Origin: Mycobacteriaceae bacterium
Lineage (GTDB): Bacteria > Actinomycetota > Actinomycetes > Mycobacteriales > Mycobacteriaceae
Direction: 5' to 3'
Assembly (NCBI GenBank): GCA_029977845.1
Contig: JAPOKC010000002.1
Location: 996 to 64,995, forward strand
DNA: 64,000 bases
Shown: positions 2,435-14,983 of the stretch, one piece after another
How the letters are laid out: every line of letters starts with the position of its first letter
How positions within the stretch are numbered: position 1 is the stretch's first letter
Notes under the pieces: generated by a model
Databases searched by the model: none
Told to the model about the DNA's origin: nothing
Seen by the model: only the letters and a program-made list of their open reading frames with translations
Position numbers and translations under genes: made by a program

Positions 2435-3880
2435 TCACTGCAGCTCACCTTTCATGACCTTGCCGGTGGCGTTCAGCGGCAGTCCGTCCCTGAATTCGAC
2501 GATGCGGGGAACCTTGTAGCCGGCCATCCGGTCTCGGCTCCAGGAGATGAGGTCCTCCGCGCTGATCCGCTGACCATCGCGGCACACCACGAACGCCTTG
2601 CCGACCTGGCCCAGCCGATCGTCGGGCACGCCGATCACGGCGGCCTGGGCCACGGCCGGGTGTTCCATCAGGAAGTCCTCGATCTCGGCCGGGTACGCGT
2701 TGAAGCCGCCGACGATGAACATGTCCTTCTTGCGACCGTTGATCTTCAGCCGTCCCGACTCCGTCAGCACACCCATGTCTCCGGTGTGCAGCCAGCCGTC
2801 GGGGTCGATGGCTTCGGCGGTGGCGGCCGGGTCGTCGAAGTAGCCCTGCATCACGCTGTAACCGCGCACCAGCACCTCGCCGTCCTCAGCGATGCGCACC
2901 TCGACATCGGCCACCGGCAGTCCGGCGGTGGTGGCGATGTCCTCGAACGAGTCACCCTGACGTGACATCGTCGCCGTACCCGCCTCGGTCAACCCGTAGC
3001 CGGTCGCCAACGTTGTGAACGGGAGCTCCTCGTAGACCCGGCGGACGAGTTCGACGGGGATGTCCGCAGCGCCGGTCACACCGGCGCGCAACGTGGCCAG
3101 CTTGCTCTTGTCGGTGACCGCGAGCAGCGAGTGGTACAGCGTCGGCGGACCGGGGAGCATCGTGATCTGTTCTGCGGCAATGAGATCCACGACACGGTCG
3201 ATGTCGAATACCGCAACCGGCAGCATGGTCGCGCCGCGGATGAAGGAGGCGATACAACCCGCCTTGTAGCCGAAGGTGTGGAAGAACGGGTTGATGATCA
3301 GGTAGCGATCACGCGGACGAAGATCAGCGAGGTCGCACCACTCGGCGTACATCCGCAGATTCTGCAGATGGTTCATCATGACGCCCTTGGGACGGCCGGT
3401 CGTACCCGAGGTGTAGATGATGTCGGCGATATCGGAGCCCTCGACCTGCCGATGCAAGGGCGTCCCGGCCTCGAGAAATCCGGACTTCAGATCGATCGCC
3501 GGTACACCCGGTGGGCTCGGGTAGTCCTGACCGAGGAAACCCTTCTCGACGAGGAGGACCTTGGCGCCACTGCGGGTGATGATGTCGGCCGCCTCGCCGG
3601 CTTTGTACCGGGTGCTGACCGGGACCACGATCCCACCGGCGGTCAGCGTCCCGAACGCGGCGATCATCCACTGCGCCGAGTTCGGCGCCCAGATGGCGAC
3701 CCGGTTACCCTTCTGCACACCCAGTTCCGCCAGTGCCCCCGCGGCCCGGCGAACCCGGTCGGCGACGTCGGTGAACGTCAGGCGCAACGGACCGTCGACG
3801 ACGGCCTCCGCGTCACCGAACCGGTCCGCCGCGCTCAGGACCATCTCCGGGATGGTCTGCCAGGGAACGGCTTGGGTCAC
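2435..3880 (-). CDS. FadD3-like acyl-CoA ligase
   Basis: YTSGTTGRPKG, INPFFHTFGYKAG (FadD3-like), GYGLTEAG, WLHTGD; likely GTG start at 3880 overlapping the upstream stop. Confidence 0.85.
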   Translation of the reverse strand: MTQAVPWQTIPEMVLSAADRFGDAEAVVDGPLRLTFTDVADRVRRAAGALAELGVQKGNRVAIWAPNSAQWMIAAFGTLTAGGIVVPVSTRYKAGEAADIITRSGAKVLLVEKGFLGQDYPSPPGVPAIDLKSGFLEAGTPLHRQVEGSDIADIIYTSGTTGRPKGVMMNHLQNLRMYAEWCDLADLRPRDRYLIINPFFHTFGYKAGCIASFIRGATMLPVAVFDIDRVVDLIAAEQITMLPGPPTLYHSLLAVTDKSKLATLRAGVTGAADIPVELVRRVYEELPFTTLATGYGLTEAGTATMSRQGDSFEDIATTAGLPVADVEVRIAEDGEVLVRGYSVMQGYFDDPAATAEAIDPDGWLHTGDMGVLTESGRLKINGRKKDMFIVGGFNAYPAEIEDFLMEHPAVAQAAVIGVPDDRLGQVGKAFVVCRDGQRISAEDLISWSRDRMAGYKVPRIVEFRDGLPLNATGKVMKGELQ

Positions 3881-5067
3881 ACCCCGACGAGCCGGGCCAG
3901 GTTGCCGCCCATGATCTTGGCCTGATCCGAAACGGGCAGGTGCTCGAGAGCCTTGGCGTAGTAGGTCGGCTCGGCCAACCCCTCCGGGTGCGGCCAGTCC
4001 GAGCCGTAGAGCACGTTGTCCACGCCGATCAGATTGACCAGATCGTCGATGCCCTCCTCGTAGAACGGGCTTACGGCGATCCGGCTCCGGACCATCTCGA
4101 CAGGGTCGCTCGGGAACGCTTCGGGCGCCTTCTTGTACACCTCGGCCAGACCGTCGAGCAACGGGAACATCCACTTCGCGCCGGCCTCGACGATCGCGAT
4201 CTTGACCGTCGGGAAACGATAGAGCAGGCCGTGGATCACGCAGGACGCCACCGCATCCTGAATCGGCCGCCACTCGTTGAGGATCGACATGGCGTTGGTC
4301 TGGAACGGCAGCATCTCCTGGGCAGCGCCGTCCCACTCCGAGGTGTAGCGCGAGTAACCGCTATCGCTGGAGTGCATTCCGACCAGAAGGTCGTACTCGA
4401 CGACCTTCTGCCAGAACGGGTCGAACTCCGGCAGCGCAAACGACCTCGGGCCACGGAAACCGGGCACCGGTGCCGGGCGGATCAGGATGCAGCGGGCACC
4501 GCGCTTGACCGCCCACTCCAACTCCTCCACCGCCTTCTCGACGATCGGCAGCGTGATCACCGGGGTGGTGTAGATGCGGTTCTCGTAGTTGAAACCCCAG
4601 ACGTCGGCGAGCCACTCGTTGAGGGCGTGGATGATGACGTGGATGGCGACCGGATCGTCACGCAGACGCTCCTCGACCACGCTGGCCATCGTCGGGAACA
4701 TCAGCGTCCGGTCCAGGCCGAGTTCGTTCATCACTTCGAGGCGCGGGCCGGGCTCGAAGAACGCCGGGATGGACCGCATCGGCTCACCGAACAGTTCGCG
4801 CTTGGTCTTGCCCTCCGGGTTGCCGTACTTGAAGTACTCCTCCCAGGCGCCGGGCTTGGCCACCACCTCGAAGGTGGCGTTGGGGATGTAGTTGCTGATC
4901 TGACCCCGCAGCGCAATCTTGGTCCGGCCATTGACCTGCACGTACTGGACGAGGTCCTTGTACTCCTTGGGCAGGTACTTGGTCATCGCCTCCGGCGGCT
5001 CGTACAGGTGGTTATCGGCGTCGAAGATCGAGAACGGCAGGTCGATCCGGTGTGACAGCTGGCCCAT
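3877..5067 (-). CDS. Amidohydrolase_2-fold protein; candidate PtmU3-type dinuclear oxygenase
   Basis: DADNH, GMHS, IVEAG, GSDWPHPEG; ATG at 5067 preceded by GAGGAGGA RBS. Confidence 0.85.
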   Translation of the reverse strand: MGQLSHRIDLPFSIFDADNHLYEPPEAMTKYLPKEYKDLVQYVQVNGRTKIALRGQISNYIPNATFEVVAKPGAWEEYFKYGNPEGKTKRELFGEPMRSIPAFFEPGPRLEVMNELGLDRTLMFPTMASVVEERLRDDPVAIHVIIHALNEWLADVWGFNYENRIYTTPVITLPIVEKAVEELEWAVKRGARCILIRPAPVPGFRGPRSFALPEFDPFWQKVVEYDLLVGMHSSDSGYSRYTSEWDGAAQEMLPFQTNAMSILNEWRPIQDAVASCVIHGLLYRFPTVKIAIVEAGAKWMFPLLDGLAEVYKKAPEAFPSDPVEMVRSRIAVSPFYEEGIDDLVNLIGVDNVLYGSDWPHPEGLAEPTYYAKALEHLPVSDQAKIMGGNLARLVGV

Positions 5068-5089
5068 GAAATCCTCCTCAAAGCTACGC

Positions 5090-5104
5090 GAGAATGTTAT
5101 TCTC
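5090..5104. promoter_or_regulatory. Palindromic operator GAGAAT-N3-ATTCTC (perfect copy)
   Basis: GAGAATGTTATTCTC about 23 bp upstream of the amidohydrolase start; motif recurs at many intergenic regions. Confidence 0.75.
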
Positions 5105-5127
5105 ATTATGGACTAATCGCAATACCC

Positions 5128-7527
5128 TCAACCCGGAGCTGTGCCGATGACCCCCTCGGCGGCCAGTTCGGAGATCTCGGCCTCGCTCAGGCCCAACCCG
5201 GTGAGGACCTCGTGGTTGTGTTGCCCGAGCAGGGGGGCATGCGCGCAGTGATAGCGCGTCGGGCCGCCCGCGCACCGGAACGGCAAGGTGCTGTGCCGCA
5301 CCGGATCGTTGACCGGGTGGGCGACGATCTCGAAGAAGCCCCGCGCCGCCAACTGCTCGAGATCGGGCTGGCGGTGCGGTTGCATGACGATGCCCACCGG
5401 CACCCCGGCCGGCCACAGGGTGGACACGATCTCCTCGGCACTGCGACCCGCGCACCAGCGGGCCAGATGTTCATCGATGCGGTCCGCGTGTGCGCGCCGT
5501 CCCGAGGCGGTGGCCAGTGACGCATCGCGGCCCCAGTCCGGATCGCCGAGTGCGGCGCGCAGTGCGGACCACTGTTGGTCGGTGGCCACCGCGATGGCGA
5601 CCCAGCGGTCTTCGCGACCGAACTCGTCGATCCCCGAGCTCCGGTACAGGTTCTGCGGCGCGGACACCGGGCCGCGGTTACCCGACCGCTGCAGCAGAGC
5701 GCCGTAGGCGGAGTATTCGATGACCTGTTCGGCGGCGATGTTGATGGCGGCATCGACCATCGCCGCCTCCACAAGGGCCCCCCGGCCAGTCCGGCGCCGA
5801 TTCGCGAGTGCGATCAGCACGGCGTTGAGCGCGTGCAGTCCGGCGTTGGGATCACCGATGGTGTACGGCTCGTAGGGATTTCGGTCGGGATACCCGGTGA
5901 GCCAGCTGATTCCGGCGGAAGCCTCGATCACATAGGCGAAGGCCGGGTTGTCCCGCCACGGCCCGTCGAGACCGAATCCCGGCATCCGGAGCATGATCAC
6001 ATCGGGCCGGATCCCTTGCACCGCTGCGTAATCCAGGCCGAGTTGGTCGAGGACCCGCGGGGTGAAATTCTCGGCGACCACATCACAGGTGGCGATCAGA
6101 CGCTTGAGCAGCTCACGTCCGCGTTCGCTCTGCAGATCCAGGGTGATGTCCTTCTTGTTGGTGTTCAGCGCCGAGAAGATCGGCTGCTTCTCCCACCACT
6201 GCTCGACGGTGACGGGAACCCCGCCGATCAACCGGGTCCCGTCCGGGCGACGGGTCGACTCGACGTGGATCACCTCCGCACCCAGCAGAGCCATCGGATG
6301 TGTGCAGGACGGCCCGGCCCAGAACGTCGTCAGGTCCAGGACCCGGACACCTTCCAGCGGTAGCCGGCCGGCAGCGACGCCGGTCGGCATTCGCGGATTC
6401 GGGGTTGCCGTCCGGTACTCCCCGGTGTGCTCGCCCATCCTCGGCGCCGGACCGGCGGGACGCAGCGTCACCCCGGAGATGCGGTAGGGATGGCCCGGTT
6501 GACGGAACCCGGCCGGATTGGCGACGAAGGATCCGCGGTCACGGAAATGATCCAGCGATTCGATGGTCGCCCCGTTGGACACCGGGGCGTTGGGGATGCG
6601 GAATGCGGTCGCCAGTTCCCGGACCTCATCGGCGGGGCGTTGGGCGATCCATGCGTACAGTTCGCCGGCCTTCTCGTTGGCCTGCTGGGTGATCGACAAC
6701 GCCGAACCCTCGTCGATCCAGTCCTCGTGCCCGGTCATCGCACAGAGGTCGAACCACTGCTGGGCGGTGCCGCAACCGATGTCGACCAAGCCGTCGGCGG
6801 CCGATGCGATCCCCGGCACGGTGAGCTTGCGGGCGTCCCGCCACGGCCGGCCGAGCATTTCGAAGTACGTCACCGGGAAATAGGTGAGTCCCATGACATG
6901 GCACTCGAGCATGGAGAGGTCGATCAACTCACCTGCGCCGCAATGTGATCGGCGCATCCATGCGGCCAGCGTGGCGGCACTGGCGTAGCCACCCGACAGA
7001 TAGTCACCGACCTGACCTCCGACATACACCGGAGCGCGGTCCGGGGCGCCACGGCCCAGTCCGACGATTCCGCCGGACCACGCCTGCAGGGTGAACTCGG
7101 TGGCCGCGCGATCACTCCACGGTCCCTCGAGCCCGAACGCGGTGATCGCGGTGATCACGAGGTGGGGGTGGCGCTCGCGCATCATCGCCGGAGAGAACCG
7201 GTCCAGTGCCGCGACGGGCGAGTCCGGCGTCCAGATGACCGCATCGGCGGATCCCAACAGTCGCTCGACGAGGTCGAGATCGGCCTCGCATGCCGGGTCG
7301 GCGAGCACGCTCGCCTTGCCGCCGGCCAGAAACGTGAACAGCGCACCGTCTTCATCGGGGGGGATCACCGCCCCCGACGCAGACCATCGGCGCAGCGGAT
7401 CACCCTGGGGCGCTTCCACTTTGATGATCTCAGCGCCGGCGTCCCCCAGAAGTTTCGTGCAGTATCCACCGGGGATTCCGGTCGAGAGATCGACGACGGT
7501 GAAGTCGATCAGTGGCGGTTCGGCCAC
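5128..7527 (-). CDS. Two-domain type III (CaiB/BaiF) CoA transferase
   Basis: 799 aa with two CaiB repeats (GAEIIKVEAPQGDPLR; PLEGVRVLDLTTFWAGP...GAEVIHVE), each ending APxxGxH. Confidence 0.9.
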   Translation of the reverse strand: MAEPPLIDFTVVDLSTGIPGGYCTKLLGDAGAEIIKVEAPQGDPLRRWSASGAVIPPDEDGALFTFLAGGKASVLADPACEADLDLVERLLGSADAVIWTPDSPVAALDRFSPAMMRERHPHLVITAITAFGLEGPWSDRAATEFTLQAWSGGIVGLGRGAPDRAPVYVGGQVGDYLSGGYASAATLAAWMRRSHCGAGELIDLSMLECHVMGLTYFPVTYFEMLGRPWRDARKLTVPGIASAADGLVDIGCGTAQQWFDLCAMTGHEDWIDEGSALSITQQANEKAGELYAWIAQRPADEVRELATAFRIPNAPVSNGATIESLDHFRDRGSFVANPAGFRQPGHPYRISGVTLRPAGPAPRMGEHTGEYRTATPNPRMPTGVAAGRLPLEGVRVLDLTTFWAGPSCTHPMALLGAEVIHVESTRRPDGTRLIGGVPVTVEQWWEKQPIFSALNTNKKDITLDLQSERGRELLKRLIATCDVVAENFTPRVLDQLGLDYAAVQGIRPDVIMLRMPGFGLDGPWRDNPAFAYVIEASAGISWLTGYPDRNPYEPYTIGDPNAGLHALNAVLIALANRRRTGRGALVEAAMVDAAINIAAEQVIEYSAYGALLQRSGNRGPVSAPQNLYRSSGIDEFGREDRWVAIAVATDQQWSALRAALGDPDWGRDASLATASGRRAHADRIDEHLARWCAGRSAEEIVSTLWPAGVPVGIVMQPHRQPDLEQLAARGFFEIVAHPVNDPVRHSTLPFRCAGGPTRYHCAHAPLLGQHNHEVLTGLGLSEAEISELAAEGVIGTAPG

Positions 7528-7531
7528 CGGG

Positions 7532-8497
7532 TCACTTCTTCTTGTGCTTCTTGCGGCCAGACTTCGACAGTCGCCATTCCGGAGGGAACTTGTCGTCGTT
7601 GTCCTTCACCGCTCCGGACAGACCGGTGTCGAGAGCCTCATGCATGTCCAGGTCGTCCTCGTCGTGGGCGATGGCCGCGCCCATCGACTCGAAGTACCCG
7701 CCCAGCAGGCTGCCCATGTACTCGCCCTGGAACTGTTTCATCACCTCGAAGAAGATCTTCTGCTGAAAGACCGTGTCCGTCGGGCGGTTACGCGCGCATG
7801 CCAGCGCATACTTGGCGACCTCGTCTTCAAGCTGATCGCGGGGTACCACGCTGTTGAGGAAGTTGCACTCGGCCATCTCGGCCGCGGTGAAGGGCCGGCC
7901 GGTGTAGACCATCTCCTGGAACTTGCGGATTCCCATCATCTGGGCCCACCACCACATCCGCGGCCCCCAGCCGTAGTACCGGAACGACGGGTGGCCGAAC
8001 AGCGCGTCGTCGGAGGAGATCACCAGGTCCGCGTCGGCAGCCTGATAGAAGTGCCAGCCGTAGCAGTAGCCCTTGACCTCCAGGATGGAGATCTTCTTGA
8101 AATCCTGCAGGGTGCGGATGCCCGACTGCGGGCTGGCATACCAGGCACTGATGGTGGCGCCGCGCCGAAACGATCCCTTGGGTGGGTATTTGACCTCTCC
8201 GGGCGGAATCCTGAATTCGCCCAGCCGCGGACCTTCGTCCTCGTCGTTCTGCATCTCCATGAACTCGGGCAGATCCGCACCGCTGCCGAGATCCTCGCCC
8301 TCGCCGCGGATCACCAGAACCTTGACCTGATCGTCGACTCCGGCCTGGTACAGCAGATCCGAGTACCGCAACCGGGCCGCTGCGGTGGGCGCGTTGAGAT
8401 ACTCCGGCCGATCGAAGGTGATCGTGGCGATCTTGGTCTTCGGATCCTTCTCGTAACGGATGATCTGCTCGGCGGGGGGACGCTGGCTTTTAGCCAT
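7532..8497 (-). CDS. Crotonase / enoyl-CoA hydratase-fold protein, atypical active site
   Basis: IATITFDRPEYLNA, GSGADL, EVKGYCYGWHFYQAADADLVISSDDALFGHP. Confidence 0.85.
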   Translation of the reverse strand: MAKSQRPPAEQIIRYEKDPKTKIATITFDRPEYLNAPTAAARLRYSDLLYQAGVDDQVKVLVIRGEGEDLGSGADLPEFMEMQNDEDEGPRLGEFRIPPGEVKYPPKGSFRRGATISAWYASPQSGIRTLQDFKKISILEVKGYCYGWHFYQAADADLVISSDDALFGHPSFRYYGWGPRMWWWAQMMGIRKFQEMVYTGRPFTAAEMAECNFLNSVVPRDQLEDEVAKYALACARNRPTDTVFQQKIFFEVMKQFQGEYMGSLLGGYFESMGAAIAHDEDDLDMHEALDTGLSGAVKDNDDKFPPEWRLSKSGRKKHKKK

Positions 8498-9617
8498 GGG
8501 TGCTCCACACCGGACTCGACGTCAACACTTCGCACCCTTCCCCGGTGATCAACACCGCATCGCGCCGGAACACCGCACCCACACCGTCGGCGAACACCAG
8601 TCCGGTGACCGCCAGCACCATTCCCGGCTCCAGCACCTCGGCCTCTGCCGTCGCGGCCAGTTGCGGAGTCACCACCGGGGCGTCGAACCCGGCACCCAGT
8701 CCGTGGGCCACCGGCAGCGGAGGCAGCGGTTCGCCGGCCTTCTCATACGCGGCCAGCAGATCCGCCGCGCGCCCGCCCGGCCGGCATGCCGCGAGCAGAT
8801 GATCGTGCAGTGTCGCCGAGCGCCGGTACAACCCGTTTCCGCCGTTGCCGGTCTGCCCGACCGGACAGGTGCGCCCGACTTCACCGATATAACCGCGATC
8901 CAGCACGCCGGACGCGAAGGCCACCAGATCGCCGGTGTGCACCCGGCCGTCACCGGCGACCCTCCGCCACGGGTGGTCCTTGGCGGTCACCCACACCGCA
9001 TCCTGATTGGCCGGCGTGCTGACTCCCCCGGCCGTCATCGCCTCCAGCAGCACCGCGGTGAGGTCCTGCACCGGAGTTCCGTCGCGCAGGTGCGCGGCGG
9101 CGGCCGCCAGGCCCAATTCGGCCACTCTGATCGACTCGCGCAGTGCCACGATCTCATCCGGCGTCTTGATCCGCCGCGCCGCACGCATGGCAGGTTCCCC
9201 GTCGACGAGTTCGGCATTGGGGAATGCCATCGGCAGAAGCTGCGCGAATCCCGGGGACAGCGCGTCCGAACCCACCCTGCGCGCGGTGGAGGCACCCGGA
9301 ATCCTGGTCAGGTTCGCGATGGTGTTCATCGGATTCCAGGAGATGCCGTAGAGGTTCTCGCGAGGGATGTCATCCGGGATGCCTTCGTCCCACGTGCTCA
9401 ACAGATGCACGGCTCCGGTCTCGCGAACCACCACGCACGACGGCGCGAACGGCCGGGTTCCGGCGACCCAGAGTTGTTGTGCCCCACTAACGTAGCGGAT
9501 GTTGGACTGACGTCCCAGGATCAGCACATCGAGATCGTGGGCGGCCATCTGCTCCAGTGCGCGTTTCCGGCGCCCCAGGCGCAGTGCGCGCTCGTCGGCG
9601 AGGACTTCAGTCGCCAT
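8490..9617 (-). CDS. M24 (pita-bread) fold protein with degenerate metal site
   Basis: Creatinase-like N-domain, ARRIKTPDEI, GEVGRTC, AHGLG, LEPGMVLAVTG; several acidic metal ligands replaced. Confidence 0.8.
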   Translation of the reverse strand: MATEVLADERALRLGRRKRALEQMAAHDLDVLILGRQSNIRYVSGAQQLWVAGTRPFAPSCVVVRETGAVHLLSTWDEGIPDDIPRENLYGISWNPMNTIANLTRIPGASTARRVGSDALSPGFAQLLPMAFPNAELVDGEPAMRAARRIKTPDEIVALRESIRVAELGLAAAAAHLRDGTPVQDLTAVLLEAMTAGGVSTPANQDAVWVTAKDHPWRRVAGDGRVHTGDLVAFASGVLDRGYIGEVGRTCPVGQTGNGGNGLYRRSATLHDHLLAACRPGGRAADLLAAYEKAGEPLPPLPVAHGLGAGFDAPVVTPQLAATAEAEVLEPGMVLAVTGLVFADGVGAVFRRDAVLITGEGCEVLTSSPVWSTHG

Positions 9618-10848
9618 AGGGCGTGTAGGGGTAGTCGGTCAATTTGATCCAGCCCTCCTCGGTGATCACCACGATCTCCTCGCTGCGGTAACCACCGGTT
9701 CCGTCCTCCCACACCACCGGTTCGAGCACCAGCACCATGCCGGCCTGCAACTCGTAACCCGCGTCGAATTCCTCTCCGAGGTCGGTTCCGATCATCGGCA
9801 TCTCGGCGGCGTTCACCCCGATCCCGTGGCCAAGGTAGAAATGCGGCAACCACGGTTTGGCGCCGTCGTTGGCGTCGATCGCGGCGCGACCGAGATCGGC
9901 GGCCGTGGCGCCGGCGCGGGTGACGTCGAGGACCGCGGTCATGATGTCTTTCCACCGCCGGAACTGCACCTGCTGACGCGCGTCCGGTTCCCGGCCGACG
10001 ATCCAGGTGCGGCCGAAGTCCGAGCAGTAGCCCCCGTAGGTGATCGAGACGTCGGTCCACAGGACGTCGCCGGCGTGCAACTCCCGTTCCGTCGACAGCA
10101 AGGGCAGTGCCAGGTCTCCGTGAGTGGTCCACACACCCTCGGCCCGACTGTTCGGCATCACCTGCCAGATGGGCTCCAGCATGGAGGCGACTGCGCCGAG
10201 TTCAAATGAACGGCGCAGGAATTCGGCGGACAGATCGATCTGACGGATACCCGGGGCCAGGGCATGCTGCACGTCGATCATCGCGGTGTCGGTAATCTGT
10301 GCGGCCCGGCGGATGCAGGCGATCTCATCGGCGGTCTTGATCGACTTGGCCGCGGCGACGATCGCGGCAGCGTCGGCAGGCGGACCGTCCGGGAAGACGG
10401 CGGCCGGCGAGCGCCGCATCGCACCGGTGAGTTCGTCGACGGCCACGACCGTGCCGCGTGGGATGAGGTCGGCGGCGATCGCGGCGAACTGCGCGACGCC
10501 CTCGTCGAATTCCAGATACAGCGCGGGATGCAGGTGGTCAACCGGAAGTCCGGTCTCCTCGGCGCTGCCCTCCCGGAACGGTAGGAACAGGTGCGGTGTC
10601 GGATCGTCGGCGAGCACGAGTGCCACCGGCCGCTCCACATGGGACAGTCCGGCATCGCCGAGGGGCCAATGACATCCGGTGGCGTAGGTGACGGCGTTGT
10701 TGCCCAGCAGCACCAGCGCGCCGATTCCCTTGTCCTTCATCGCCGCACGCAACCGGGCGCCGGTCTGCGCGCGCAGCCGGCTCCTGTCCGGCTCGACCGG
10801 GATGTCGGAGGCCGAGGCGACCGGGGCCGGCGTGGTGGCGGTGGTCAT
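9607..10848 (-). CDS. M24 family metallo-enzyme (intact D,D,H,E,E ligand set)
   Basis: KSIKTADEI, WTDVSITYGGYCSDFGRTW, GHGIG, LVLEP, GYRSEEIVVI. Confidence 0.85.
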   Translation of the reverse strand: MTTATTPAPVASASDIPVEPDRSRLRAQTGARLRAAMKDKGIGALVLLGNNAVTYATGCHWPLGDAGLSHVERPVALVLADDPTPHLFLPFREGSAEETGLPVDHLHPALYLEFDEGVAQFAAIAADLIPRGTVVAVDELTGAMRRSPAAVFPDGPPADAAAIVAAAKSIKTADEIACIRRAAQITDTAMIDVQHALAPGIRQIDLSAEFLRRSFELGAVASMLEPIWQVMPNSRAEGVWTTHGDLALPLLSTERELHAGDVLWTDVSITYGGYCSDFGRTWIVGREPDARQQVQFRRWKDIMTAVLDVTRAGATAADLGRAAIDANDGAKPWLPHFYLGHGIGVNAAEMPMIGTDLGEEFDAGYELQAGMVLVLEPVVWEDGTGGYRSEEIVVITEEGWIKLTDYPYTPYGD

Positions 10849-12009
10849 CTACAGGCCCAGGAACTTCTTGGCATTCGTGCTGCAGATCTTCACCGCGTCC
10901 ACCTGGCCGACCGCGTCGACGACCGACCTCAGCGAGCGCTGCGAGTAACCGAAGGTGCTCTCGTTGTGCGGGTAGTCCGACGACCACATGACATTGTCGA
11001 CACCGATCTCGTCGAGCAGTCTCAGGCCGAGCGGATCGACCATGAACGATGCCGTCATGTGGTTGTTCCAGTAGTAGCGGATGTCGTGCTCGACTTCGCG
11101 GTTGAACATGTGCTGGTAGGAGGCGAGCAGATGTTCGGCATCCTGCAGGGCCGTGGCGACCCATGCGATACCGCCCTCGAACCAGCCGATCTTGAGCGTC
11201 GGGTGGCGATCGAGGATGCCGGTGAAGAGGTACTTCGAGAACGTCTCCCGGAATCCGTCGACATTGATCATCATGCCGACCACGACACTGTTGTTCTCGC
11301 ACGGCGTCTTCGGCGGAGTCTCACCGATGTGGTGGCTGACCGGCAGTCCGGCTTCCTCGATCTCGTCCCACACGGCGTCCATCGCTGCGCTGCCGTAGTC
11401 GATGATCGCGTCGTCGTCGCCCTTTCCGGGATTGAGCGGCATGAGGAACGTCTTGAGCCCCAATGACTTCACCTCGGCGAGCGTGCGCCGCGCTCCGGCG
11501 GGATCCCACCAGTTGATCAGACCGACACCGTAAAAATGGCCGTTGCTGCGTTCCTGGATCTCGGCGATGTATTCGTTGTAGATCCGGAACACCTGCTCGC
11601 GCAGTTGACGATCGGGGTAGTGGAACAGCGCCAGCACGGCGTTCGGGAAGGCCAGTTCCTTGTCGACGCCGTCCTGGTGAAGTTCGGCGATCCGGGCCTC
11701 GATGTTCGTGGTGGCCGCGCCGGCGAGATCGTCGTACTGCATCAGCACCCGGCTGAAGTCCAGCGGCAGGAAGGTCTGCCCCTTACCCTTCCCCACCATG
11801 TACGCCCCGTCTTCGTACCAGATCCGGGGTGCCTTCTCCTTGAACTCGGGCGGGAACTTCTCGTAGAAGATGTCCTCCGACAACGAGATGTGGTTGTCGG
11901 CCGAGAACACCTCGGTTCCCGCCGGGAGGCCGTTGGCCTCGTTGACATTGGCGTGGCGGTCCTTCGGAGCGCCGAAGCCGCCTCGGGGATAGACGATGGC
12001 CGTGGACAT
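10849..12009 (-). CDS. Amidohydrolase_2-fold protein; candidate dinuclear oxygenase or hydrolase
   Basis: SADNH, SHHIGE, WFEGG, SSDYPHNES. Confidence 0.85.
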   Translation of the reverse strand: MSTAIVYPRGGFGAPKDRHANVNEANGLPAGTEVFSADNHISLSEDIFYEKFPPEFKEKAPRIWYEDGAYMVGKGKGQTFLPLDFSRVLMQYDDLAGAATTNIEARIAELHQDGVDKELAFPNAVLALFHYPDRQLREQVFRIYNEYIAEIQERSNGHFYGVGLINWWDPAGARRTLAEVKSLGLKTFLMPLNPGKGDDDAIIDYGSAAMDAVWDEIEEAGLPVSHHIGETPPKTPCENNSVVVGMMINVDGFRETFSKYLFTGILDRHPTLKIGWFEGGIAWVATALQDAEHLLASYQHMFNREVEHDIRYYWNNHMTASFMVDPLGLRLLDEIGVDNVMWSSDYPHNESTFGYSQRSLRSVVDAVGQVDAVKICSTNAKKFLGL

Positions 12010-12045
12010 GGTGGGGACTCCAATCTGACTGCTGCTAATGGTTTT

Positions 12046-13266
12046 TCACCAGGTGACCGGCAGTTCGTAGACGCCGTATGCCAACTTGTCGTTCTTGAAC
12101 GCGATGTTGTCGATCGATGTCGCGAGTCGTAACGTGGGCACGCGGCGCAGCAGCGTGCTGAAGACGATCTGCAGTTCGGCCCGGGCGAGCTGCTGTCCGA
12201 CGCACTGATGCCGCCCGTAACCGAAGGCGAGATTGTCATCGGCCTCCGGCCGCCTCAGCTCCAGGTGATCGGGATTCAGGAACTTCTTCGGGTCCCAGTC
12301 GGCCGGAGACAGGTCGATGATCACACCATCTCCGGCTTTGATCACGGTGCCGGCAATCTCGATGTCCTCGGTCGCCACCCGGCGCTGACCGGTGTGGATG
12401 ATGGACAGGTAGCGCAGGAGTTCCTCGACGGCGTTGGCGACGACCGCCGGGTCGTCGGTGTCGCGTAGAACGGCGAGTTGTTCGGGATTCTCCAGCAGCG
12501 CCAGCACACCCAGGCCGATCATGTTGGCTGTCGTCTCGTGACCGGCGAGCAGCAGTCCGCTGGCGAGTTGCGATGCCTCCTTGATGTCGATCTCGCCCGC
12601 CTTGACCCGTTCGGCGAGATCGGAGACCGCATCCTCTGCGGGCTCCTTCATCTTCTGCTCGACCAGGTTCCCGAGGTACCTGGCCAGACTCATGACGCCC
12701 TTCATGGTGTCCTCGGACTTGGCGTACCGGGCCAGACCGACGTTGGCGTGCTCCTGGAAGAACCCGTGATCCTCGTAGGGCACGCCGAGCATCTCGCAGA
12801 TCACCAGCGACGGGACCGGCAATGCCAGGGCACCGACGAGGTCGGCCGGTTTGGGGCCGGCCAGCATCGCGTCGATGTGGTCGTCGGTGATCTTCTGAAT
12901 GGCCGGGCGCAACGCCTCGACTCTTTTGAAGGTGAAGGGCTTGGACAGCATCCGCCGGTAGAACGTGTGCTCCTCGGCGTCGGCGGTGAACACCGACCGA
13001 GGCCGCTTGTCGACGGTGGACAGCATGTGTTCGTTCCAGTGCGGGAAGCCCGGCTTGCGGTCGTCGACACTGATCCGGGAGTCGGCGAACAGTGCGCGCG
13101 CCTCCTCGTAGCCCGTGATCAGCCACGGTGTGCTGCCATCCCAGATCGTCACCCGGCTCAGTGGAGCGGCCGCGGCAAGTTCCATCACCTCCGCCGGCGG
13201 CGCGAAGGGGCAACTGGCCGAGCGCTCCATCGGGTAGGCGTGGGCGACGGTCGCGGTGTCGGTCAC
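12046..13266 (-). CDS. Cytochrome P450 (CYP105-like)
   Basis: AGHETT I-helix, EELLR, heme motif FGYGRHQCVG; N-terminal CPFAPP typical of CYP105. Confidence 0.93.
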   Translation of the reverse strand: MTDTATVAHAYPMERSASCPFAPPAEVMELAAAAPLSRVTIWDGSTPWLITGYEEARALFADSRISVDDRKPGFPHWNEHMLSTVDKRPRSVFTADAEEHTFYRRMLSKPFTFKRVEALRPAIQKITDDHIDAMLAGPKPADLVGALALPVPSLVICEMLGVPYEDHGFFQEHANVGLARYAKSEDTMKGVMSLARYLGNLVEQKMKEPAEDAVSDLAERVKAGEIDIKEASQLASGLLLAGHETTANMIGLGVLALLENPEQLAVLRDTDDPAVVANAVEELLRYLSIIHTGQRRVATEDIEIAGTVIKAGDGVIIDLSPADWDPKKFLNPDHLELRRPEADDNLAFGYGRHQCVGQQLARAELQIVFSTLLRRVPTLRLATSIDNIAFKNDKLAYGVYELPVTW

Positions 13267-13269
13267 GGT

Positions 13270-13464
13270 TCACTCCTCGATCGTGATCGCTAGTGCGGGG
13301 CACGCGGCTGCGGCGGCCCGGACCCGGGCCTCCTGATCGTCCGGTGGCTCGTCGGTCAGCAGGACGACGACGCCGTCCTCGTCGCGCTGGTCGAACACCG
13401 CCGCGGCATTGCGGACGCACTGCCCGGAGGAGACGCAGGCGGCCTGATCGACGACGACTTTCAT
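13270..13464 (-). CDS. [3Fe-4S]-type ferredoxin (CxxSxxC...CP)
   Basis: MKVVVDQAACVSSGQC...ACPALAI; ATG at 13464 overlaps the TetR stop. Confidence 0.9.
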   Translation of the reverse strand: MKVVVDQAACVSSGQCVRNAAAVFDQRDEDGVVVLLTDEPPDDQEARVRAAAAACPALAITIEE

Positions 13465-14126
13465 ATCCCGTCCACCTCCTCGGTGACCGGCGCCAACCAC
13501 AGCCCGATGATCGCGTCGATCAGACCCGACGATGCCGAACCCCAGGTCAGGTTCGGCGAGCGCGTGCGGTCGGCGATGGCACGCTCGTAATGGGCGCAGG
13601 TGTGGATCAGCAGGTTGCGGCCCATGACGTTGCGCTCGGCCCGGACGCGGGTCGGCAGATCTGGCAGACACCGGCTGATGCCCTCGAGAACCGTGACCAG
13701 GGCCGGCAGGGCCAAAGCCCCGGAAGTGATGGTCTGGTAGTAGGCCGGATCGGCCATGACCTGAGCGGCGAAACGGGCGTACCAGGTCGGATTGCCCAGC
13801 GCGGTCAGGTGATCGGTCAACGGAAGGACCAGGGCGCCGACCCAGTCCCGCAACTCCTCCGAATCCCCCATCTCGGCCAGTCGTTGTGCGCGCAGTCGCT
13901 CCACCGGGACGGCGTGCTTGTGCTCGATGGCCCGGACGAGGTCGGTCTTGGTTCCGAAGTGGTACCCGACGGCGGCGTTGTTGCCCTGCCCGGCGGCCTC
14001 GCTGACCTGACGGTTGGACACCGCGTAGACACCGTGTTCGGCGAACAGTCGCTCAGCGGCCGCGAGGATCGCCTCGCGGGTGAGACTGGCCCGGTCGGCC
14101 CGGGTGCCGGTGGTCGCAGCGGTCAT
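13461..14126 (-). CDS. TetR family transcriptional regulator
   Basis: TREAILAAAERLFAEHG...RQVSEAAGQGNNAAVGYHFGTKTDL HTH. Confidence 0.92.
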   Translation of the reverse strand: MTAATTGTRADRASLTREAILAAAERLFAEHGVYAVSNRQVSEAAGQGNNAAVGYHFGTKTDLVRAIEHKHAVPVERLRAQRLAEMGDSEELRDWVGALVLPLTDHLTALGNPTWYARFAAQVMADPAYYQTITSGALALPALVTVLEGISRCLPDLPTRVRAERNVMGRNLLIHTCAHYERAIADRTRSPNLTWGSASSGLIDAIIGLWLAPVTEEVDGI

Positions 14127-14154
14127 CAAGGCCAGTCAACCCCCGACCATTCTT

Positions 14155-14170
14155 TAAGTCAAGTGCTTTA
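14155..14170. promoter_or_regulatory. Candidate TetR operator overlapping a TTGACT -35 element of the tetR-fdx-P450 unit
   Basis: AT-rich imperfect palindrome TAAGTCAAGTGCTTTA (TAAnnCAnnTGnnTTA) about 30 bp upstream of tetR. Confidence 0.45.
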
Positions 14171-14983
14171 TTTTCCGGGGCGCGGTTTCCGGCCGACCGG
14201 CCGACCGGCGGCCGTGCCGCCGTCGACGGGCAGCACGGTTCCGGTGACGTACGGCGAGCGGTCGCCGGCGAAGTAGACCGCCACCTCGGCGACGTCCTCG
14301 ATGGTGCCCTCGCGTTCGAGTGGCCGGTCGGCCCGCATCGTCTCGCGGATGCGCGCCTCGAATTCGGCGACGGCTTCGGCGTCCTTGCCGTGCGCCGACG
14401 AGGCGACGATCGCCGTCCTGATGTGGCCGGGCGCGATGCAGTTCACCCGGACCTCGTAGGCCGCCAACTCCACGGCAGCGCATTTGGTGAAGTGGATGAC
14501 CGCTGCCTTGGATGCGCGATAGGTCATCACCCCGCCCCCGGCCTGAATCCCTCCGATGGAGGTGAGATTGATGATCGAACCGCCGCCGTGTTCGGCCATG
14601 TACCGCGCGGCATCGCGCGTGCCCGCCATCACCGCCCGCAGGTTGATCGCCATCACCCGTTCGAAGTCGGCCAGGTCGTCACTGAGAAAGCTCCGATGCA
14701 TCTTCCCTGAGACCCCGGCGTTGTTGACCATGACGTCCAGGCCGCCGTAACGATCGATCGCCGCATCGATCAACCGGCTGAGCTGAACGGTGTCGGCGAC
14801 GTCGGTCGCCAGGAACAACGCCTTCTCGCCGTGCCGATCGGCCAGCTCCGCACCTCGGTCGGAGTCCACGTCACCGAACACCACCGACGCCCCCTCGGCC
14901 AGGAATCGCTCGACGATACCCGCACCGAGACCGGCCGCACCTCCGGTGACCACGGCCACCTTGCCCGCCAGTTCAGCGCTCAT
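14168..14983 (-). CDS. SDR family oxidoreductase
   Basis: TGGAAGLG, NNAG, YRASK. Confidence 0.92.
   Translation of the reverse strand: MSAELAGKVAVVTGGAAGLGAGIVERFLAEGASVVFGDVDSDRGAELADRHGEKALFLATDVADTVQLSRLIDAAIDRYGGLDVMVNNAGVSGKMHRSFLSDDLADFERVMAINLRAVMAGTRDAARYMAEHGGGSIINLTSIGGIQAGGGVMTYRASKAAVIHFTKCAAVELAAYEVRVNCIAPGHIRTAIVASSAHGKDAEAVAEFEARIRETMRADRPLEREGTIEDVAEVAVYFAGDRSPYVTGTVLPVDGGTAAGRPVGRKPRPGK

Follow-up and report, generated by a model that had tools for sequence, protein, structure and literature searches.

The closest described relatives of the system considered here are the two-domain M24 enzymes prolidase (PDB 1pv9 and 5giu), creatinase (1chm), DddP (4b28 and 4rzy), and DoeA (6twk), which join a Creatinase_N domain to a pita-bread domain and which, to our knowledge, are homodimers in every characterized case. 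Here, we describe two adjacent genes, M24A and M24B, in a 64,000-nucleotide stretch of the genome of a Mycobacteriaceae bacterium (GenBank assembly GCA_029977845.1, contig JAPOKC010000002.1, positions 996 to 64,995 of the forward strand; "the window" below means this whole stretch). Their products have the same fold, but unlike the two chains of a homodimer, they are encoded by different genes, are 25% identical, and include one chain without a metal site. We posit that M24A and M24B are partners in an obligate, asymmetric heterodimer that has a single active site and acts on a nonpeptide intermediate. What we infer comprises the complex as a physical entity, its one site, and the kind of substrate, and we give this combined reading an even chance of being right.

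The underlying principle has precedents in other folds. In the alpha/beta mitochondrial processing peptidase, which has the M16 fold and acts on peptides, a catalytic subunit and a dead paralog make up a demonstrated heteromer. TldD/TldE follows the same principle, with a paralog that holds the metal site and a dead paralog kept for the substrate chamber (PMC5810440); its fold is unrelated, its substrates are peptides, and its heteromer has been demonstrated, whereas that of the M24 pair is a proposal from sequences. In full-text literature searches, no M24 enzyme was found described as heteromeric or as having a pseudo-subunit, and for the M24 genes of Mycobacterium marinum, full-text and locus tag searches returned nothing beyond automatic names.

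An intact M24 enzyme and its degenerate paralog

The two genes of the pair are as follows.

9607..10848, minus strand: M24A, 413 amino acids, with an intact dinuclear metal site (Pfam Peptidase_M24, 128.6 bits; Creatinase_N, 37 bits)
8490..9617, minus strand: M24B, 375 amino acids, a paralog without a metal site (Pfam Peptidase_M24, 73.9 bits; Creatinase_N also matched)

Both proteins pass the Pfam gathering cutoff of 23 bits. A first-pass annotation of this DNA had credited M24A with the complete D, D, H, E, E set of metal ligands, together with AAE where peptidases carry xHE, and had read A, E, H, T, and R at the five equivalent residues of M24B; both readings are borne out. Aligned with the Deinococcus prolidase 5giu, the M24A ligands are D266 (in WTDVS), D277 (CSDFGRT), H341 (LGHGIG), E376 (VLEPV), and E390 (RSEEI), the same five as in prolidase and DddP, and the corresponding residues of M24B are A235, E246, H305, T338, and R352. 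The NAAEMP stretch of M24A aligns with EVHEGP of the prolidase, which puts A348 at the position of the xHE histidine, with E349 after it. M24A thus differs from peptidases in lacking this histidine, the counterpart of His361 in Escherichia coli APP, which has an assisting role in peptide hydrolysis. The housekeeping prolidase of the same genome retains IHE.

Could this combination simply be an accident of one genome? Across 26 M24A sequences, reaching down to ~40% identity, the five metal ligands are invariant, as are H336, E349, and R388 (H336 and R388 being the equivalents of APP H350 and R404), and the xHE histidine position holds Ala in 24 sequences and Gly in the other 2. Metagenome loci supplied 109 further M24 copies, among which all M24A-type copies read D-D-H-(A/G)-E-E and all downstream partners are degenerate. 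Because of the invariance across the 26 members and the degenerate partner found in all cases, we read the intact set with Ala or Gly at the histidine position, next to a degenerate partner, as a pattern and not as chance. Full-length relatives of M24B at 33 to 53% identity are degenerate at the ligand positions too, the fourth being typically Gln and the fifth Arg or Lys; among relatives, there is free variation at the positions equivalent to the ligands, and the degenerate state is common to relatives down to ~35% identity. The M24B family is a large one, with 212 cluster representatives (50% identity) matched at E ≤ 1e-30 in a search against 1.84 billion representatives, and M24A and M24B each have hundreds of relatives at 70 to 84% identity, mostly named Mycobacterium.

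The two genes also keep company. A scan for M24B in one genome per species gave 312 relatives, and the best 80 of these, from Mycobacterium, Mycolicibacterium, Mycolicibacter, and Nocardia, were analyzed as loci. M24A lies directly upstream of M24B in all 80; two seeming exceptions to adjacency (L018 and L076) are frameshifted long-read metagenome assemblies. Most of the 80 loci keep the order of a cytochrome P450, ARO1 (read below as an amidohydrolase-related dinuclear oxygenase [ARO]), M24A, M24B, an optional crotonase-family gene, and a CoA-transferase. The end of M24A overlaps the start of M24B by 11 nucleotides (ATGGCGACTGA) in the window; the same overlap occurs in 66 of 76 loci and one of 4 or 14 nucleotides in four others. 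Farther afield, M24A-like genes of 38 to 52% identity are directly followed by M24B-like genes in metagenome loci and in one genome. These distant pairs add 21 loci in which the two genes are adjacent, plus G499, a genome from another actinobacterial class.

Selection was gauged by omega (the ratio of nonsynonymous to synonymous divergence, dN/dS) with the Nei-Gojobori method over 56 loci, taking the median over pairs with a dS of 0.1 to 1.5. The resulting values, which like the correlations below come from nonindependent pairs without a significance test and are descriptive only, are 0.160 for M24B, 0.175 for M24A, 0.141 for ARO1, 0.158 for the P450, and 0.180 for the CoA-transferase. The first-pass annotation had named relaxed selection on M24B, as on a decaying pseudogene, as a finding that would refute its proposal; that test, once run, fails, since M24B has an omega like that of its neighbors. 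The M24B reading frame is intact in 79 of the 80 loci. The sole in-frame stop among 57 extracted M24B copies is found in L081, a metagenome-assembled genome of Mycobacterium sp. BP_240 (M24B at 10001-11125), and may be a sequencing error or a true loss.

Selection does not fall on the same half of the two proteins. M24A is more conserved in its catalytic C-domain (dN of 0.144 vs 0.202 for the N-domain), and in M24B, the reverse holds (0.124 for the N-domain vs 0.219 for the C-domain). Over 11 complete genomes, dividing N-domain dN by C-domain dN gives 2.13 for the housekeeping prolidase, 1.37 for M24A, and 0.69 for M24B. Invariant residues tell the same story: across 26 sequences of each protein, 44 of the 50 in M24A fall in the C-domain and 6 in the N-domain, while 13 of the 22 in M24B fall in the N-domain. 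The nine invariant residues of the M24B C-domain (P216, G242, R249, C278, G308, G310, P314, L365, and T366) include no His, Asp, Glu, Lys, or Ser. The M24B of G499, at 316 amino acids, has a conserved N-domain and a shortened C-domain, and in an Atlas cluster of 323-amino-acid M24B relatives, Creatinase_N alone is recognized.

The two genes covary in rate as well. When dN distance matrices of five operon genes are compared, those of M24A and M24B correlate best (r = 0.876), and with the signal of the other three genes removed, the partial correlation of M24A and M24B is 0.69, the highest of the ten gene pairs. The P450 and ARO1 come second at 0.61, and ARO1 and M24A, despite being just as adjacent, stand at -0.11. 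These correlations argue for two coevolving units, the P450 with ARO1 and M24A with M24B. In total, a conserved, selected, and coevolving enzyme/pseudo-enzyme pair is well supported.

A proposed asymmetric heterodimer and its main alternative

Structure prediction yields a confident two-domain fold for M24B (AlphaFold2 predicted local distance difference test [pLDDT], 90.9; predicted template modeling score [pTM], 0.90), and the M24A model scores 87.7 and 0.89, respectively. Foldseek places DddP and prolidases at the top for M24A and prolidases, creatinase, DddP, and DoeA at the top for M24B, with template modeling scores of ~0.7 to 0.8 that do not discriminate among prolidases, creatinase, DddP, and DoeA. 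The profile of the M24B family contains a conserved loop, W-x-A-G-x-R-P-F, which aligns with the "FGRPY" of creatinase, R55 being its arginine; this loop lies in residues 41 to 60, where confidence in the M24B model drops. In creatinase, this arginine (Arg64) extends into the site of the partner chain, where it contacts the carboxylate of the substrate.

In DddP, the tunnel leading to the metal site of one chain is walled by the N-domain of the other, and the same is true of creatinase and the prolidases (PMC4108388). We speculate that M24A and M24B would come together as a heterodimer of the "embracing hands" type seen in the creatinase, prolidase, and DddP homodimers. In this model, the sole catalytic pocket would be the dinuclear metal site in the pita-bread domain of M24A, and the conserved N-domain of M24B, with its G-x-R-P-F loop, would form the walls and the gate of that pocket. 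The corresponding pocket of M24B would be dead, and that half of the dimer would be relaxed. We favor a dimer of one M24A and one M24B with a single live site in M24A because the domain asymmetry, the N-domain walls of the DddP type, and the R-P-F loop all fit it. The first-pass annotation had proposed a heteromeric nonpeptidase, and the heteromeric part of that proposal is indirectly supported by the adjacency, the gene overlap, the purifying selection, the reversed domain conservation, and the top-ranking rate covariation.

Several observations weigh against this reading. A search for a natural fusion of M24A and M24B found none that is genuine, the four "longer" matches and one more protein, P0276, being frameshifted read-throughs in error-prone assemblies. 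Lone degenerate M24 relatives without an adjacent intact copy exist (in L100 and L109). M24A has a creatinase-like "ERP" arginine of its own, R73, in 21 of 26 sequences, so that an M24A homodimer could in principle complete its site. The rate comparisons, as noted, are descriptive. With respect to the reaction, M24A retains nearly the whole catalytic apparatus of a prolidase, so that it may hydrolyze amides; several of the distant pairs are surrounded by housekeeping genes and have no more than a P450 in the vicinity; and the lactone proposal set out below is a guess, whose two sources are gene neighborhood and chemical logic.

Might M24A then be a self-sufficient, homodimeric metallohydrolase and M24B a protein with a separate, noncatalytic job, such as ligand binding, scaffolding for another enzyme of the operon, or sensing, the two being only cotranscribed? 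R73 and the lone degenerate copies favor this idea, as does the fact that the known two-domain M24 enzymes are all homodimers (PMC4108388). We consider it unlikely, given the adjacency in 80 of 80 loci, the conserved geometry of the overlap, and the finding that the strongest rate covariation in the operon is that between M24A and M24B. In addition, the N-domain of M24A is under less constraint than the rest of the protein, which one would not expect of a domain that had to cap M24A's own site.

Reaction and substrate

What might such a pair do? Curated protein family models, among them those of NCBIfam, give low scores throughout. The best PepQ-type score (NF040821) is 58.2 bits against a cutoff of 630, and PRK09795 gives 64.6 bits against 393; the DddP model NF043017 gives 53.8 bits for M24A and 44.2 bits for M24B against 600; and the DoeA models TIGR02993 and NF038259 give 27.9 and 24.5 bits against 613 and 575. 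Neither M24A nor M24B reaches the cutoff of any of these curated families (PepQ, PepP, YpdF, DddP, DoeA, or creatinase type). The catalytic base of DddP, Asp377, presumably sits at the position that in M24A is H341+6, and this position is variable in M24A (A/S/P). Because the xHE histidine is lost family-wide, the scores fall far below the curated models, and the neighbors are oxygenases and CoA-activating enzymes, it is plausible that the M24 pair is a nonpeptidase.

We speculate that a metal-bound hydroxide would attack the carbonyl of a pathway intermediate, the likeliest substrate being a lactone or ester that would arise once an alicyclic carboxylic acid has been hydroxylated or has undergone Baeyer-Villiger oxygenation. 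The oxygenation would be carried out by the neighboring CYP105Q4 with its ferredoxin and by the diiron ARO. Hydrolysis would yield a free carboxylate, which the family III CoA-transferase or a FadD3-like ligase would convert to its CoA thioester, and crotonase chemistry would follow. Hydroxy acids of rigid ring systems lactonize readily, flavin-dependent Baeyer-Villiger enzymes make lactones directly, and in steroid-degrading actinobacteria, 5-hydroxy-HIP gives the delta-lactone HIL. A lactone or ester hydrolase that uses a metal hydroxide to free a carboxylate is the reaction we prefer, tentatively, as we think it likelier to be wrong than right. Amide hydrolysis, C-C cleavage, or epoxide opening may be the reaction instead. 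A bolder version, in which the pair is the first heteromeric pita-bread enzyme and performs a reaction new to the fold (lactone opening, or C-C cleavage beside a newly introduced hydroxyl, in a hindered alicyclic acid) as part of a portable module of an oxygenase plus a ring opener, the oxygenase being a P450, a diiron ARO, or a flavin monooxygenase, strikes us as improbable but worth stating.

The neighborhoods of the distant pairs, which vary and at times consist of housekeeping genes, bear on this question, as two kinds of gene recur in them. The first is oxygenases: a P450 gene is found near the pair in seven loci (L101, L102, L104, L115 to L117, and L120), L122 has a motif-positive ARO, and in G499, a gene for a luciferase-like monooxygenase immediately precedes the pair. 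The second is enzymes that require a free carboxylate, namely, a CoA ligase similar to FadD3 (G499 and L176) and a family III CoA-transferase (L124 and L178). Is the pair, then, a dedicated accessory of the ARO? We rejected this idea, as distant pairs occur with P450s or a flavin monooxygenase, and the covariation of ARO1 with M24A is -0.11. In locus L125, an oxygenase of the RPE65 family, of the carotenoid cleavage type (11679-13148, minus strand; 379 bits), a short-chain dehydrogenase (SDR), and a thiolase lie ~2.6 to 6 kb from the distant pair, which hints at isoprenoid-derived substrates in that lineage.

A different possibility is that the pair is a true amide bond hydrolase (a peptidase or amidase) and not a hydrolase of esters, lactones, or C-C bonds, which could, for example, remove an amino acid or amine conjugate from a lipid acid. 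M24A does keep the five ligands, E349, and the equivalents of APP H350 and R404 (H336 and R388), and the characterized hydrolytic two-domain members (prolidase, creatinase, and DoeA) all cleave C-N bonds. Set against this are the family-wide loss of the xHE histidine, scores far under all curated peptidase models, and an operon and distant contexts in which no gene points to a nitrogen-containing substrate; we regard an amide substrate as quite unlikely.

Another idea is that M24B is itself a metal-free enzyme, as creatinase is, and that the pair performs two consecutive reactions. Creatinase, whose catalytic pita-bread pocket has no metal ligands, ranks with the top matches of M24B in both fold and sequence, and the M24B model is that of a confident, complete two-domain protein. 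What M24B shares with creatinase in this comparison, in which the creatinase catalytic residues were not mapped singly, is only the N-domain arginine of "FGRPY." No His, Asp, Glu, Lys, or Ser is invariant in the M24B C-domain, its ligand-equivalent positions vary freely, and it is the fastest-evolving part of the protein and is shortened in some lineages, and we therefore hold out very little hope for a second enzyme here. Finally, that M24B is a decaying duplicate heading for loss, as the disappearance of four of its five metal ligands might suggest, has a vanishingly small probability and is rejected on the strength of its omega of 0.16 (equal to that of its neighbors), the frame intact in 79 of 80 loci, the 212 clusters, and a degenerate state shared down to ~35% identity.

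The operon around the pair

The remaining genes of the operon, from first to last in the direction of transcription, are given here.

14168..14983, minus strand: SDR, the first conserved gene of the module (Pfam adh_short_C2, 202 bits); equals Mmar_4765
13461..14129, minus strand: TetR-family regulator (Pfam TetR_N, E = 1.2e-09); equals Mmar_4764
13270..13461, minus strand: 63-amino-acid ferredoxin of the Fdx9 type, with the motif CxxSxxC...CP (Pfam Fer4_15, E = 4.5e-12)
12046..13266, minus strand: cytochrome P450, CYP105Q4 ortholog (PDB 8swl)
10849..12009, minus strand: ARO1, a PtmU3/DitZ-like amidohydrolase-related dinuclear (predicted diiron) oxygenase (PF04909, 83.8 bits)
7532..8497, minus strand: crotonase-family enzyme, EchA4_1-like (Pfam ECH_1, 76.5 bits)
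5128..7527, minus strand: two-domain family III CoA-transferase, the final gene of the module (CoA_transf_3, 563.9 bits over two stretches); equals Mmar_4757

The genes are tightly packed: the TAG stop of ARO1 abuts the ATG of M24A with no gap, and the stop of M24B overlaps the crotonase start by 8 nucleotides. Synteny extends to the SDR in most of the 80 loci and to the CoA-transferase in most loci, and the crotonase gene is found in about two-thirds of loci and is absent from one subclade. The window also encodes a FadD3-family ligase (758 bits against a curated cutoff of 657). Two P450-ARO1-M24A-M24B blocks occur in one Mycobacterium genome, G109 (C10:460500-471482, which is L099, and L005 on C20), with ~64 to 72% identity to the window proteins.

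The P450 matches M. marinum CYP105Q4 (8swl) over residues 3 to 406 with an E value of 1.1e-201, and the two marks of a CYP105Q4, a full-length match to the solved enzyme and an Fdx9-type ferredoxin directly upstream, are both present. The ferredoxin gene is concealed in the 3' part of a call for a 133-amino-acid open reading frame; its motif and its placement beside CYP105Q4 are those of Fdx9 (Mmar_4763) (PMC6237146), and it is the predicted redox partner of the P450. Gene order in the operon is identical to that of the CYP105Q4/Fdx9 cluster of M. marinum, Mmar_4757 to Mmar_4765, for which the supplement of the same study lists an SDR (4765), a gene that "may encode a transcription regulator" (4764), Fdx9 (4763), CYP105Q4 (4762), an "unknown" (4761), a "dipeptidase" (4760), an "aminopeptidase" (4759), EchA4_1 (4758), and an acyl-CoA transferase (4757) (PMC6237146). 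The names in that cluster are automatic ones, and the M24 pair goes undiscussed in that paper. The study does report conservation of the neighborhood in M. ulcerans, M. vanbaalenii, M. gilvum, and M. smegmatis, no change in the spin state of CYP105Q4 with any of a large set of compounds, and, in its Table 1, no M. tuberculosis counterpart for Fdx9 (PMC6237146).

ARO1, directly upstream of M24A, had been taken in the first-pass annotation for a dimetal amidohydrolase on account of its SDYPHNE sequence, which is indeed present at residues 344 to 350. A dinuclear site is probably right and a hydrolase probably wrong, since the motifs and the resemblance to PtmU3 and DitZ mark an oxygenase. The closest solved relatives are PtmU3 (6omp, E = 1.3e-23) and DitZ (8uyr, E = 7.1e-23), ahead of all decarboxylases and hydrolases of the fold, and the alignment with both spans both metal motifs. 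AROs such as PtmU3, DitZ, SfbO, and AibH2 are defined by an N-terminal D-x-H and a C-terminal D-x-P-H-x-D/E motif (PMC13154177), and ARO1 carries both, as D38-N-H40 and D345-Y-P-H-N-E350. Its C-terminal motif begins at residue 345 of a PF04909 fold, where at least ~200 residues are expected to precede it, and the hydrophilic residue in D-N-H matches one of three criteria for the diiron class (PMC13154177). ARO1 is thus best read as an O2-dependent diiron hydroxylase and not a hydrolase. A parallel to the M24 pair comes from this same oxygenase superfamily: the ARO monooxygenase AibH1H2 is a two-paralog enzyme, with a metal-binding AibH2 and its paralog AibH1 (PMC10811679). AibH1H2 is a TIM-barrel oxygenase, in contrast to the pita-bread M24 pair, and ARO1 is a single gene without a paired paralog.

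How the operon is controlled was approached through operator patterns. With up to 2 mismatches allowed, the palindrome GAGAAT-N3-ATTCTC has 8 matches in the window, where 1.1 would be expected. The one at 5090-5104 lies in front of ARO2 (3877-5106); between 5128 and 16000 there is no copy, and none precedes the M24 operon. Control of the M24 operon by this island operator was rejected for that reason, and because no copy lies in that interval, the operon is probably under its own TetR, the regulator at 13461..14129 probably being the repressor of the module. Control by KstR was rejected as well, the KstR-type operator pattern giving only 2 matches, neither near the operon.

The searches also turned up other M24 arrangements. 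A metagenome scan with a 6-sequence alignment gave 80 loci, about half of which belong to a different M24 family (DDH-W-EE). That family (L129 and L133 to L175; e.g., L133:8001-9137) is mostly single copy, has D, D, H, E, E with Trp or Gln for the xHE histidine, is very often followed by an SDR gene, and may be another nonpeptidase M24 lineage. In L100 (223-1362) and L109 (15-836), a degenerate M24 reading "DGYVQR" immediately follows a CoA-transferase, and the contig carries no intact M24; the cluster of this degenerate M24 includes a member named Chloroflexota. Tandem pairs with the altered copy first and the intact copy second occur at L132:752-2802, L119:11-1689, L157:1139-3597, and L161:3457-5915 and read "EVHIAT" then "DDHVEE" or "DCHYEE" then "DDHQEE," and the pairing of an intact with an altered M24 copy seems to have arisen more than once. 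Seeming M24A-M24B or M24B-CoA-transferase fusions (P0276, P0420, and P0423) are frameshift artifacts of long-read metagenome assemblies.

What would the pair mean for the M24 family and for mycobacteria? If the heterodimer is real, a textbook fold would gain a new architecture, the obligate pairing of an enzyme with a pseudo-enzyme, and a clean example of a dead paralog retained as an active-site lid. Annotations everywhere call the pair "Xaa-Pro dipeptidase" or "Xaa-Pro aminopeptidase," names that are probably wrong for hundreds of genomes. The operon holds two orphan oxygenases, CYP105Q4, for which a structure but no substrate has been reported, and a predicted diiron oxygenase similar to PtmU3 and DitZ, and it is conserved in the tractable species M. 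marinum, M. smegmatis, and M. vanbaalenii, which makes genetics and biochemistry feasible. The bolder version of the reaction given above, if true, would be a clue to the natural substrate of CYP105Q4 and of a large P450-rich, Mce-linked catabolic island of nontuberculous mycobacteria, and solving the pair could show which environmental ring lipid this mycobacterial island degrades.

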